Positions 30,896 through 34,876 of a stretch of DNA of 64,000 bases are shown here, piece after piece. The notes beneath the pieces were generated by a model. That model was given only the letters and a program-made list of their open reading frames with translations. It was not told where the DNA came from and searched no databases. The DNA lies in contig CAUWBF010000004.1 of NCBI GenBank assembly GCA_963557785.1, positions 36,776-100,775 on the forward strand. Reading direction: 5' to 3'. The stretch is from an uncultured Clostridia bacterium (GTDB lineage: Bacteria > Bacillota > Clostridia > TANB77 > CAG-508). The translations under genes and the position numbers were made by a program. Each line of letters opens with the position of its first letter. The stretch's first letter is position 1.

Positions 30896-30971
30896 TGGTT
30901 GCGGGGGGTAGACTCGAACTACCGACCTTTGGGTTATGAGCCCAACGAGCTGCCAACTGCTCCACCCCGCG
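30896..30971 (-). tRNA. Initiator tRNA-fMet (anticodon CAU)
   Basis: The reverse complement reads CGCGGGGTGGAGCAG ... GGGCTCATAACCC ... CCCCCGCAACCA. It has a C1:A72 mismatch, three consecutive G:C pairs in the anticodon stem and a CAU anticodon. The ends may be off by 1 nt. Confidence 0.85.
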
Positions 30972-31169: not shown

Positions 31170-31871
31170 GTGAAGCAAATGAAAAAGATAGTAAGTTCAT
31201 TACTAGTAAGTATAATTATTATGATGAGTTGTATTATATCAAATGCAGCCAATGTAGCAAATTTAACATTTACATCTAATTCAACTTCCGTTGATGTGGG
31301 TTCTGAAATAACTGTGTACTTAGAAGTAAATAGTTTGTCAGGAATTAGTGAATTATATGGAGTAGCAGGAGTATTAGATTATGATAGAGATACTTTTGAA
31401 CTAGTAAGTGTTACAACAGAAAATGGTTGGCAAAAGACAACAGGAAATATAATGTCATTAATACATTCAGATGGTGTAACTTCTGGTAAAATAATAAAAG
31501 TTGTATTAAAAGCATTAAAGAAACCAGAAAATGGTGCTTCTGCACTAACATTAACACAAGTAAGTGTTGTAGACTTAGACGATGAATATGAACAAGGAGA
31601 TGTAACTTATACAATAAATGTAAAAGAAAATGTAGTTAATCCACCAGCTGAAGAACAACAACCAGAAACAAATACAAGTGAAGATAAAAATACAACAAAT
31701 CAAGGAACAACAAATCAAACACAAAATGGAATACAAAATAACGATACTACAACTTCAAAAGTTAAATTACCTGCAACAGGATTAGATTTAACATTAGCAA
31801 TCCTTATAGCTCTAGCAGTTATTATAGGAGTAGCGTCTTTAATAAGATACAAAAAAATTAAATTAAAATAG
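31170..31871 (+). CDS. LPXTG-anchored cell-surface protein with a cohesin-like domain
   Basis: A signal peptide is followed by a beta-rich cohesin-like region and a Thr/Asn/Gln-rich linker. The C-terminus has an LPATG sorting motif, a hydrophobic helix and an RYKK basic tail. Confidence 0.65.
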   Translation: MKQMKKIVSSLLVSIIIMMSCIISNAANVANLTFTSNSTSVDVGSEITVYLEVNSLSGISELYGVAGVLDYDRDTFELVSVTTENGWQKTTGNIMSLIHSDGVTSGKIIKVVLKALKKPENGASALTLTQVSVVDLDDEYEQGDVTYTINVKENVVNPPAEEQQPETNTSEDKNTTNQGTTNQTQNGIQNNDTTTSKVKLPATGLDLTLAILIALAVIIGVASLIRYKKIKLK

Positions 31872-31882
31872 GAAAAAAATTA

Positions 31883-31914
31883 AAAACCTCTTAGTTTATC
31901 TAAGAGGTTTTTTG
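31883..31914 (+). terminator. Rho-independent terminator (AAAACCTCTTAG ... CTAAGAGGTTTTTT)
   Basis: Perfect stem followed by a T-run after the LPXTG gene. Confidence 0.55.
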
Positions 31915-32013
31915 TCGTTTTATAGTGTATGAATATTGTTGAAAATGAGTAATAAATAATATAAAATTATTATATTATTTCTAAAATATTTTAAATCAAA
32001 AAGTTTTTTTCGG

Positions 32014-33562
32014 ATGGTGATTTATTTGTTATCTATAATAAAAAGTATGTCTATAAATGGTTTAAGTGGGTATTTAATTAATGTACAAGTAGATATATCT
32101 CAAGGAATTCCATGCTGGGAAATAGTAGGTCTTGCAGATACAAGTATTAAAGAGTCAAAAGAAAGAGTTAGAGTAGCTATAAAAAATTCTGGATATGAAA
32201 TATATAGTAAAAAAATAATTATAAATTTAGCACCGGCAAATACAAGAAAAGAAGGCTCATTTTTAGATTTACCAATAGCAATAGGAATACTTATAAATTT
32301 AAATAAAATTATCAATAGAAATTTAGATGATACAGTTTTTTTAGGTGAATTATCGTTTAATGGTAAAGTAAATAAAATAAATGGAATTCTGCCAATATGT
32401 TTAGAAGCTAAGAAAATAGGAATTAAAAATATTGTAATTCCAATAGAAAATGTTAAAGAAGCTTCTATAGTTGAAGGGATAAAAATAATAGGAGTATCTT
32501 CATTAGAAGATGCAATAAACTATATAAATAATAATAAAAACTTAAAAACTGAAAAAATAGATCATAATTGTATAAATCAAGTAACGTATAATATAGATTT
32601 TTCTGATGTTAAGGGGCAAGAAAGTGCAAAACGAGCATTAGAAATAGCAGCAGGAGGGGGACACAATTGCTTACTAATAGGACCACCTGGTTCACGGTAA
32701 AACTATGTTAGCAAAAAGATTTGTAACAATTCTTCCAGATATGACTTTTGAAGAATCAATGGAGACTATGAAAATACATAGTATAGCAGGAATATTATCA
32801 AATGAAAATCCAATTATTATTAATAGACCGTTTAGGGCACCTCATCATACTATTTCAAAGTCTGCATTAATAGGAGGAGGAAAAATTCCAAAACCAGGTG
32901 AAATTAGTCTTGCACATAATGGAGTATTATTCTTAGATGAATTAACAGAATTTGATAAAGCTACTATAGAAGTATTAAGAGAGCCACTAGAAGAAAAAAG
33001 TATAAATATTAATAGAATTTCAGGAAATTATAAGTTTCCATCTAATTTTATATTTATTGCATCTACTAATCCATGTCCATGTGGATATTTTGGGTCAAAT
33101 AAAAGAAAATGTAAATGTACAAAAAATGCAGTAAATAGGTATTTAAGCAAGATAAGTGGGCCACTACTAGATAGAATAGATTTACATATAGAAGTTAATG
33201 AATTAGATTATGAAAAAATAGAAGATAATAATATTATGGAAACTTCACGACAATTAAAAAATAGAGTAAATAGTGCAAGAAATATACAGAGAATAAGATA
33301 CCAAAATGAAACAATTTCTTCAAACTCTGAACTTACTCCTAAGCTAATTTCAAAGTATTGTGAATTAAATTTAGAAAGTAAAAAAATGATAAAAAATTCA
33401 TTTGAAAAATTGAATTTAAGTGCAAGAGCATATTATAAAATAATAAAAATAGCAAGAACTATAGCTGACTTAGAAGGAAAAGAAAATATTAATAAATTTC
33501 ATATAGCAGAAGCAATTCAATATAGAAGTTTAGATAAAAAATATTGGGAGAGGGAGGAATAA
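32014..33562 (+). pseudogene. comM: Competence/Mg-chelatase-like AAA ATPase ComM (YifB family), interrupted by a +1 frameshift inside the Walker A motif
   Basis: The 228 aa N-terminal ORF ends ...LLIGPPGSR*. The next frame continues MLAKRF..., so the expected sequence GPPGSGKTML is split by an extra C in ggttcaCggtaaaact at about 32690-32700. The two parts sum to a YifB-length protein (about 513 aa). Confidence 0.7.
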
Positions 33563-33563
33563 T

Positions 33564-34472
33564 ATTATTAAATTTAAAATAGATAATAAAGTATTTGATG
33601 TATTTGAAATTAAAAATACTAATATAAATTTTCCAAAAAGATTATTAAATATAAAAAAATGTCCAAGTAAATTATATGTTATTGGTAATCAAAAATTATT
33701 AAATAATTTTTCAATTTCAATAGTAGGTTCAAGAAAATGTACAAAATATGGTTTAGAAAAAACAAAAGAAATCGCAAAGGATTTATCAAAAAGTGGAGTT
33801 ACCATTGTAAGTGGATTAGCTATAGGAATAGATTCTTTTGCACATTTATATTCTATGAATGAGATAGGAAGAACAATTGCAGTATTAGGAAGTGGTTTTA
33901 ACAATATATATCCAAAAGAAAATAAAAAATTATTTTTTGAAATATTAGAGAATAATGGCTGTATAATTACCGAATATAATTTTAATGAACCAATATCAAC
34001 TAAAAATTTCCCAATAAGAAATAGGATAATAAGTGGAATTTCAGTAGGAACGTTAGTGGTAGAAGCAATGAAAAAAAGTGGGAGTAATATAACAGCGAAA
34101 TACTCTATAGAACAGGATAAAAAATTATTCTGTATACCGAATTCAGTTGATATAAAACAAGCAGAAGGTACAAATGAACTAATTAGAAAAGGGGCAATAT
34201 TAACTAGAGATTATCAAGACATATTAGATGAATATTTACCAATAAATAATTCTAATAATTTTAGAAAAAATAAAAAAGTTGCAAAAATTATAATACCAAA
34301 TGAATATATTGAAATTTATGAAAAAATTAATTATATTCCAATAAATATAAATGAATTATATAGAAAGTTGAATATAAAAAATATATCTTATTTAAATCAA
34401 ATTTTATATATGATGGAAATAGATGAATACATTGAAAAATTACCTGGTAATAATTATATTAGAAAAAATTAA
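33564..34472 (+). CDS. dprA: DNA-processing protein DprA (Smf), probably using a non-AUG start (ATT at 33564) coupled to the comM stop
   Basis: A conserved DprA Rossmann core (SISIVGSRKCTKYG ... VSGLAIGIDSFAH ... TIAVLGSG ... FPIRNRIISG) is encoded upstream of the first ATG at 33855. No ATG, GTG or TTG occurs in frame between the stop at 33531 and 33855. GGAGG at 33553-33557 precedes the ATT at 33564. Confidence 0.75.
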   Translation: MIKFKIDNKVFDVFEIKNTNINFPKRLLNIKKCPSKLYVIGNQKLLNNFSISIVGSRKCTKYGLEKTKEIAKDLSKSGVTIVSGLAIGIDSFAHLYSMNEIGRTIAVLGSGFNNIYPKENKKLFFEILENNGCIITEYNFNEPISTKNFPIRNRIISGISVGTLVVEAMKKSGSNITAKYSIEQDKKLFCIPNSVDIKQAEGTNELIRKGAILTRDYQDILDEYLPINNSNNFRKNKKVAKIIIPNEYIEIYEKINYIPININELYRKLNIKNISYLNQILYMMEIDEYIEKLPGNNYIRKN

Positions 34473-34483
34473 TAGGAGGTCAA

Positions 34484-34843
34484 ATGTATCATAATTATGA
34501 AATAGGATTATTAGGAGAAAAAATTTCAAAAGAATATTTAAATAAAAATAATTATATTGTTATAGATAAAAACTTTAGAGTTAAACATGGAGAAATTGAT
34601 TTAATTTCTATTGATAAAAATACCAATGAATTAGTATTTTTAGAAGTAAAAACTAGAACCAATTTTAAATATGGAAGAGGTATAGAAGCAATTAATTATA
34701 GAAAAGTGAATCGTATAAAAAATGCAGCAAGAATATATATTTATATAAATAAATATGAAAACAGAAATATAAGGTTTGATGCAATAGAATTATATATAAT
34801 TAATAATAAATTTAAAATTAATCATATAAAGAATGCATTTTAA
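34484..34843 (+). CDS. yraN: YraN-family (UPF0102) endonuclease-like protein
   Basis: GE ... YL ... GEIDLIS ... LVFLEVKTR ... RFDAIEL pattern, 119 aa. Confidence 0.8.
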   Translation: MYHNYEIGLLGEKISKEYLNKNNYIVIDKNFRVKHGEIDLISIDKNTNELVFLEVKTRTNFKYGRGIEAINYRKVNRIKNAARIYIYINKYENRNIRFDAIELYIINNKFKINHIKNAF

Positions 34844-34876
34844 AATAGAAGAAGTAATTACTTCTTCTATTTTATT
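34844..34876. terminator. Bidirectional terminator (AAAATAGAAGAAGTAATTACTTCTTCTATTTT)
   Basis: Perfect palindrome between convergent yraN and comEA. Confidence 0.5.

Follow-up and report, generated by a model that had tools for sequence, protein, structure and literature searches.

The stretch of DNA analyzed here (the window) comprises 64,000 nucleotides of a metagenome-derived contig (GenBank assembly GCA_963557785.1, contig CAUWBF010000004.1, positions 36,776 to 100,775 of the forward strand) from an uncultured, very AT-rich, gut Clostridia-like bacterium. On its forward strand comM, which encodes an AAA+ ATPase of the YifB family, is followed without a gap of more than one nucleotide by dprA, a recombination-mediator gene whose reading frame has no canonical start codon 5′ of its conserved domain. 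The initial annotation proposed that dprA begins at an ATT codon behind a GGAGG Shine-Dalgarno (SD) sequence, directly after the comM stop. Comparison with orthologous loci points to the same interpretation: dprA probably starts at a near-cognate AUU that has been retained, as AUU or AUA, across a whole clade of related bacteria. The features of the comM-dprA junction, in window coordinates, are as follows.

32014–33562, forward strand: comM (YifB-family AAA+ ATPase), the upstream cistron, with one extra C at 32695 in the Walker A motif
33531–33533, forward strand: TAG in the dprA frame, after which that frame is open; no start in this genome can lie further 5′
33546–33559, forward strand: extended SD GGGAGAGGGAGGAA, a purine run with the core GGAGG at 33553–33557, within the last comM codons (W-E-R-E-E)
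33560–33562, forward strand: comM stop codon TAA, 1 nt 5′ of the first ATT
33564–33569, forward strand: tandem ATT ATT, the proposed near-cognate dprA starts, 6 and 9 nt after GGAGG
33564–34472, forward strand: dprA coding sequence as proposed, 302 codons plus TAA, with matches to PF02481, TIGR00732 and DprA structures and with no SAM domain
33855–33857, forward strand: ATG of Met98, the start chosen by gene callers, giving a truncated product of 205 residues

Read directly from the sequence, the dprA frame is open from 33534 to its TAA at 34470–34472, and its first in-frame ATG, GTG or TTG is the ATG at 33855–33857, codon 98 counted from 33564. The 97 codons that precede it (33564–33854) contain IVGSRKCTKYG and VSGLAIGIDSFAH, and the first 97 residues also include the peptides VFDVFEIK, NTNINFPK and LLNNFSISIVGSR. 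The extended SD, which can also be written GGGAGAGGGAGG, lies inside the final comM codons. Every coordinate in the initial annotation (open frame, ATG, GGAGG, TAA and ATT ATT) matches the sequence. The lack of start triplets over 97 codons is by itself unremarkable, with a chance probability of ~0.06 (ATG, GTG and TTG make up 2.9% of the sense codons in the window); the true anomaly is that no canonical start lies 5′ of the conserved domain. The leader of dprA ahead of its first canonical start is 107 codons long, against 0–34 codons in the other real genes among the 59 long open reading frames (ORFs) of the window. A canonical start behind a recognizable SD is present in 52 of these 59 ORFs, and dprA is the sole one that needs a non-canonical start, no other requiring ATT or ATA, which rules out relaxed start-codon use across the window as the explanation.

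The comM-dprA junctions were also read in DNA of the closest relatives, which are 60–77% identical to the window in amino-acid sequence over this part of dprA. The nearest named relatives, among the matches listed, are metagenome-assembled genomes labelled Clostridiales or Clostridia. The informative junctions are given below by locus.

L087: AAGGAGG, 7 nt, ATT; in-frame TAA four codons 5′
L095: GAGGAGG, 7 nt, ATT; the sole upstream canonical triplet (TTG) lies 5′ of the SD
L088/L089: AGAAGGGA...ATA; in-frame TAA immediately 5′ of the ATA
L090: AGAAGGGA...ATA; in-frame TAA immediately 5′ of the ATA
L091/L092: TGA, then ATA ATT ATA; an ATG without SD four codons before the conserved “FP”
L096/L097: AAGGAGG AATAACGT ATA, which follows the comM TAA by one codon
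L093/L094: ATG ATG, overlapping the comM TGA (ATGA)
L098: ATG, 8 nt inside comM

The ATT ATT of the window aligns with ATT in L087 and L095, with ATA in L088, L090, L091 and L096, and with the ATG ATG of L093; L001, from another strain, shares the ATT state of the window. Measured to the conserved “FP”, the distance is 22 codons for L088, L090, L095, L096, the first ATT of the window and the third codon of the L091 series, 21 codons for L087 and the second ATG of L093, and 25 codons for the ATG of L098. The ATT and ATA codons and the ATG ATG of L093 thus share one or two alignment columns, with the L098 ATG three codons further 5′. Because in-frame stops stand 0–4 codons 5′ of the ATT or ATA in L087, L088/L089, L090, L091/L092 and L096/L097, the N-terminus is bracketed and starts further upstream are excluded. 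Within the window, ATA 33534 and ATT 33543 could be discarded as starts, since both lie 5′ of the SD and their homologous positions are closed by stops in orthologues. A purine-rich SD is present in all orthologues, and their ATT and ATA codons follow a strong SD by 6–9 nt.

In a neighbor-joining tree the window, L001, L087, L088, L090, L091 and L096 form one clade of seven loci, or about five species-level lineages, all of which have ATT or ATA; its sister is the ATG-start L093. Three further, separate lineages also have ATT or ATA: L095, which sits beside the ATG-start L098, and L107 and L111, two distant ATA cases, each on a single contig amid ATG relatives, that came from a DNA-pattern scan of metagenomes. 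Synonymous sites across the ATT/ATA clade are near saturation (synonymous divergence, dS, 0.4–0.9). The arrangement that the initial annotation had suggested looking for in orthologues is therefore found throughout a clade, behind an SD in each case, and the comparison indicates that the non-canonical dprA start is old, gene-specific and recurrent.

The same data dispose of a sequencing or assembly error that deleted a canonical start. The window does derive from a metagenome assembly, but the 29-nt junction GGGAGAGGGAGGAATAATATTATTAAATT is identical in 13 independent assemblies of the species, made from different samples with different assemblers, and the non-canonical state is common to related species; these data refute the error explanation. 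It had been reasoned earlier that a canonical start in orthologues would point to a local error in this sequence. The premise has some truth in it, as L093 and L098 do have ATG, but the inference of an error fails, given that the 13 assemblies agree and the whole clade has ATT or ATA.

The predicted protein argues that the codons upstream of Met98 are an integral part of the gene. Translated from the ATT, DprA matches PF02481 (DNA_processg_A) in Pfam over residues 20–213 (profile positions 14–209 of 212), and it passes the NCBIfam equivalog TIGR00732 with 234 bits against a cut-off of 191.15 (profile 15–219 of 220). The upstream 97 codons account for PF02481 positions 14–95; the Met98 product covers positions 96–209 only and scores 136.9 bits with TIGR00732, below the cut-off. 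In a sequence search of the PDB, residues 19–211 align with residues 9–196 of Helicobacter pylori DprA and residues 23–224 with residues 81–280 of Streptococcus pneumoniae DprA (SpDprA). An AlphaFold2 model of the ATT-start protein has a mean predicted local distance difference test (pLDDT) score of 87.7, and its residues 1–100, with pLDDT 89–98, are modeled as five strands and four helices with a β-hairpin from residue 2. Foldseek matches the model to H. pylori DprA with a template-modeling (TM) score of 0.88 and a root-mean-square deviation of 1.8 Å, to SpDprA with E = 5e-21 and to RpDprA with E = 1e-26.

The domains are the Rossmann-like DprA domain and a probable C-terminal winged helix; the DprA_WH match is sub-threshold in the window protein (E 0.021), and the domain is present in relatives. 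The N-terminal SAM-like domain is missing, as the initial annotation had noticed: residue 23 aligns with SpDprA residue 81, which leaves only ~20 residues before the core. The SAM domain of the S. pneumoniae and Bacillus type is optional and does not define the DprA family. H. pylori DprA (PDB 4LJK, 5MLL) resembles the window protein in having no SAM domain and a Rossmann-like domain that starts within ~10–20 residues, and differs from it, at 32% identity, in that the window protein has an N-terminus ~10 residues longer (the β-hairpin) and a probable winged helix added C-terminally.

Substitution patterns agree with this picture. Between the window and strain L001, whose protein is 97% identical, the N-terminal 97 codons carry seven synonymous and four nonsynonymous changes, a ratio of nonsynonymous to synonymous rates (dN/dS) of 0.13 (binomial P = 0.002, with 80% nonsynonymous changes expected under neutrality); for the remainder of dprA the ratio is 0.10. 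Against more distant orthologues, for which dS nears saturation, the values are 0.27–0.52 for the N-terminal 97 codons and 0.14–0.27 for the remainder. Between strains that share the ATT state, dprA differs by 22 synonymous and 11 nonsynonymous changes, where ~80% nonsynonymous would be neutral (P = 0.002 and 5e-7). The ORF is open for 300–308 codons in all full-length lineages. Purifying selection, intact ORFs, the modeled fold and the TIGR00732 score together argue that the upstream 97 codons are translated and needed.

Two rival explanations can be weighed on this evidence. Translation from Met98 (33855) would begin at the first canonical start in the dprA frame and yield a protein of 205 residues, the length of all database entries of the species (P0001–P0003). 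We consider it extremely improbable, as no SD precedes 33855, the aligned residue in L093 is Ile, and the product would be without positions 1–95 of the PF02481 and TIGR00732 profiles, below the NCBIfam cut-off, and would lose five strands and four helices, including the GSR motif, while the purifying selection on the upstream codons would be left unexplained. Alternatively, dprA could be a pseudogene, or on the way to becoming one, its start lost by AT-biased mutation as competence wanes and its ORF intact only because the loss is recent. The frameshift in comM of the same operon, the want of a canonical dprA start and the fact that gene callers yield only the truncated 205-residue protein are all what decay would produce. 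This is nevertheless very unlikely: a clade with dS of 0.4–0.9 keeps frames of 300–308 codons with N-terminal dN/dS of 0.13–0.5, strains that share the state differ by twice as many synonymous as nonsynonymous changes (22 versus 11), the SD has been kept and exceeds in strength that of the ATG-start relatives, and comM is itself under purifying selection.

The strength of the SD was estimated by pairing the 20 nt 5′ of the ATT with an assumed Firmicute-type 16S 3′ tail, the 16S gene of the organism lying outside the window. The predicted dprA duplex has −12.7 kcal/mol, which just 5 of the 48 scored canonical starts of the window match or surpass (top ~12%; median −10.3). Orthologues with ATT or ATA (L087, L088, L090, L091, L095, L096, L107 and L111) have duplexes of −10.9 to −16.4 kcal/mol, and those of the ATG-start relatives are weaker, at −10.4 (L093) and −6.4 kcal/mol (L098); the association of stronger SDs with ATT and ATA starts looks like a compensatory pattern. 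GGAGG as such is enriched in the window (52 copies versus 23.5 ± 4.5 expected), and the SD spacings of other window genes span a range that includes both 6 and 9 nt. Since both ATTs fit, the start codon would be that at 33564 or that at 33567.

The RNA around the junction (33515–33615) is predicted to be essentially unstructured, with a minimum free energy of −4.7 kcal/mol (z +1.3), so that de novo initiation would not be blocked. A hairpin that masks the SD and start, and thereby makes coupling to comM obligatory, can be ruled out on the same ground. An Rfam scan of the window found two tRNAs and the SRP RNA only, and no known RNA element at the junction. An unusual initiator tRNA as the basis of AUU decoding is likewise ruled out, the initiator tRNA in the window being canonical.

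30896–30971, reverse strand: initiator tRNA-fMet, with a CAU anticodon, a C1xA72 mismatch and three G-C pairs in the anticodon stem

The genes and signals that flank comM and dprA are listed below.

31882–31912, forward strand: terminator-like hairpin 5′ of the operon, strong and bidirectional
31939–31967, forward strand: promoter-like site TTGAAA-17-TAAAAT, after the hairpin
34484–34843, forward strand: yraN (UPF0102), the third gene, with a canonical ATG and an AGGAGGT SD
34841–34874, forward strand: terminator-like hairpin that closes comM-dprA-yraN

The two bracketing hairpins, the only terminator-like hairpins at the operon, and the promoter-like site suggest that comM, dprA and yraN form one operon. 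Upstream of it, the gene at 31170–31871 encodes a surface protein of the sortase type (LPATG), for which Pfam gives a weak match of cohesin-like kind.

The stop-start geometry of translational coupling, which the initial annotation had pointed out, holds for the window, where the comM TAA ends 1 nt before the ATT, and for the close clade, where the dprA start lies from 8 nt before to 5 nt after the comM stop. In L107 and L111 the ATA stands 15 nt after the comM stop and the SD is intergenic; given this gap, coupling is not essential to the non-canonical start.

A third rival would replace initiation at a near-cognate codon with recoding, either as a ComM-DprA fusion made by frameshifting or readthrough or as ribosome hopping or reinitiation independent of any specific start codon. 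Some junctions invite this view: in L096 dprA stays in the frame of comM from the TAA onward, in L088, L089 and L090 the sequence ATA TAA ATA, which might provide take-off and landing sites, comes after a start that overlaps the comM TGA, and comM itself appears to need recoding. However, with comM as the reference, dprA is in frame +1 in the window, in frame +2 in L087, L088, L090 and L091, and in frame 0 in L096, so that no single frameshift or readthrough mechanism fits all lineages and a ComM-DprA fusion is ruled out as the general mechanism. At the window junction, GAA TAA T ATT, there is neither a slippery or re-pairing site nor an in-frame canonical start further 5′, and all that the lineages have in common is an SD with ATT or ATA after it. 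Recoding is thus decidedly unlikely as the explanation.

The ATA TAA ATA junctions deserve a remark of their own. In L088 (2606–2617), L089 and L090 (103–114) a mini-ORF consisting of TTG or ATG, ATA and TAA lies in frame just before the dprA ATA, its start codon overlapping the comM TGA, and L107 has GTG ATA TGA TAT GAT ATA. In L088 and L090 the ATA-TAA-ATA could reflect reinitiation after the mini-ORF or a ribosome hop over the stop. The arrangement does not apply to the window junction.

We therefore return to initiation at the near-cognate codon, to which we assign a probability of roughly four in five: dprA would be started by SD-driven initiation at AUU or AUA, probably with coupling to comM termination and with low output. 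Ordinary fMet-tRNA would decode the AUU at 33564 or 33567 of an intact dprA, with the ribosome positioned by the strong extended SD inside the last comM codons. With the comM stop 1 nt 5′ and an unstructured region around it, ribosomes probably reach the start both by reinitiation after comM termination and by de novo binding at the SD. By analogy with such starts elsewhere, the weak codon would hold DprA output to about a tenth of the AUG level. The ATT start that the initial annotation envisaged is borne out by seven orthologous lineages with ATT or ATA at the homologous codon, by the in-frame stops that bound it and by purifying selection, with sequencing error excluded.

Several observations weigh against this interpretation. 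Initiation at the ATT is inferred from sequence, and the organism is uncultured. ATT and ATA together amount to 107 per 1000 codons, which gives a chance of ~0.2 per lineage that one or the other falls in the SD window; the case accordingly rests on recurrence across lineages that are only partly independent. The ATA at 33579 is also a possible start, though it lies 21 nt from the SD, and L091 has an in-frame ATG four codons before “FP”, although without an SD. The mini-ORF in L088 and L090 means that a different mechanism may act there. Finally, the frameshifted comM could signify a decaying operon, though the selection data oppose this.

The state of comM bears on that last point. The extra C at 32695 lies inside the Walker A motif (32689–32707), in GGT TCA C GGT AAA ACT, which encodes G-S/G-K-T, and all assemblies of the species in which the site is covered carry it (also L001–L005). 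Among 5.8 billion proteins there is no full-length ComM more than 74% identical. Both halves of the gene are under purifying selection (dN/dS 0.07 and 0.16; P = 1e-7 and 7e-4), and the sole polymorphism at the site, TAA/CAA in frame 0, reads in the +1 frame as a synonymous GGT/GGC. In frame 0 the site has CGG, which is the least used Arg codon of the window (5 of 17,868 codons), and the +1-joined ComM matches TIGR00368 unbroken over profile positions 3–499 with 608 bits. From these features comM looks like a candidate for programmed +1 frameshifting rather than a dead gene; a literature search on the comM frameshift found nothing relevant. Where comM begins is ambiguous. No SD precedes the ATG at 32014, GGATGGTGA is followed after 5 nt by an in-frame TTG at 32026, and initiation at the ATG at 32047 would yield 504 residues, as in L088.

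In the loci of relatives, yraN and dacA are full length where covered and comM and comEA are full length in most; comM is split in the window species, in L097 and probably in L098, and comEA in L090. The L097 assembly (ERZ13410481, 3.4x coverage) has comM in two fragments of 115 and 170 residues where L096, of the same species, has an intact 512, and this split is probably assembly noise.

Stop-codon usage offers a possible origin for the non-canonical start. Of the 54 scored window genes, 44 have TAA as their stop, 10 have TAG and none has TGA, which is not a sense codon either, whereas relatives still end comM with TGA; TGA may be avoided in this genome. If it is, this would connect to how ATG starts disappear from ATGA overlaps: when an AT-rich genome rids itself of TGA stops, an ATG that shares an ATGA junction with such a stop is destroyed as well, the change of TGA to TAA turning it into ATA. 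AT-biased loss of an ancestral ATG overlapping the comM TGA, an arrangement still seen in L093, is therefore a plausible evolutionary route.

A more far-reaching proposal combines the two anomalies of the operon. Expression of comM and dprA might be throttled by two serial signals, a programmed +1 frameshift at a hungry CGG (TCA CGG T/C) in the comM Walker A motif and an AUU start fed largely by ribosomes that terminate on comM, so that the outputs of DprA and of full-length ComM report the translational state of the cell (tRNA-Arg, initiation factor 3 [IF3], guanosine tetraphosphate [ppGpp]), with ATT and ATA kept across the clade by selection and not by tolerated AT-biased drift. We regard this as rather doubtful.

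Near-cognate starts of this kind have precedents. The closest in geometry is infC of Escherichia coli, which encodes IF3 and has an AUU 3 nt after the thrS stop (UAA GGU AUU), compared with UAA U AUU for dprA. In both genes a phylogenetically conserved near-cognate AUU lies behind an upstream SD, near the stop of the preceding cistron. The infC AUU is the sensor of an autoregulatory loop of IF3; for dprA no such feedback logic is evident, and ATT and ATA interchange between lineages. We know of no role for DprA in start-codon discrimination. In an E. coli reporter with an infC-like UAA-GGU-AUU and an SD, reinitiation and de novo initiation were credited with about equal shares of second-cistron translation (PMC3592434).

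Closer in phylogeny are the conserved starts of cvfC1 (AUU), ccpN (AUA), citZ (AUA) and infC (AUA) in Staphylococcus aureus, all with extended SDs, whose AUU and AUA codons give ~10% of AUG output and up to 30% depending on the medium; the AUA start of ccpN is found in both S. aureus and Bacillus subtilis (PMC13009471). Nutrient limitation, ppGpp and IF3 affect non-AUG starts particularly strongly in vitro (PMC5499595). These cases resemble dprA in being Firmicute genes with a conserved AUU or AUA behind a strong extended SD at proper spacing, missed by annotation. They differ in that they are first cistrons or stand-alone genes, whereas dprA abuts the comM stop, and in that they were mapped by Ribo-RET and reporters, whereas the dprA case is drawn from sequence. 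A third parallel is functional. In E. coli pcnB an inefficient AUU start keeps a potentially harmful nucleic-acid enzyme at a low level. An inefficient AUU would likewise limit a nucleic-acid enzyme in the case of dprA, although pcnB belongs to another family and is without the coupling geometry. As in the class formed by infC, pcnB and ccpN, dprA has no compatible canonical start, an AUU or AUA at SD spacing and conservation of that codon. A literature search found no report of a non-canonical dprA start. On the sequence features, dprA joins infC, pcnB and the S. aureus genes ccpN and cvfC1, and the principle itself is already established.

The consequences are practical as well as biological. 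Because gene callers accept only ATG, GTG and TTG, the database DprA entries for this species and several relatives are N-terminally truncated, at 203–273 residues. Pipelines would take such DprA proteins for incomplete ones or for pseudogenes, and the competence potential of these gut Clostridia would be underestimated. Few bacterial genes are known to keep an AUU or AUA start across a phylogeny, and dprA would bring a recombination mediator into their number; the recurrent pairing of a weak start with a stronger SD would provide a natural data set on whether weak starts are selected or merely tolerated where coupling and a strong SD make up for them.

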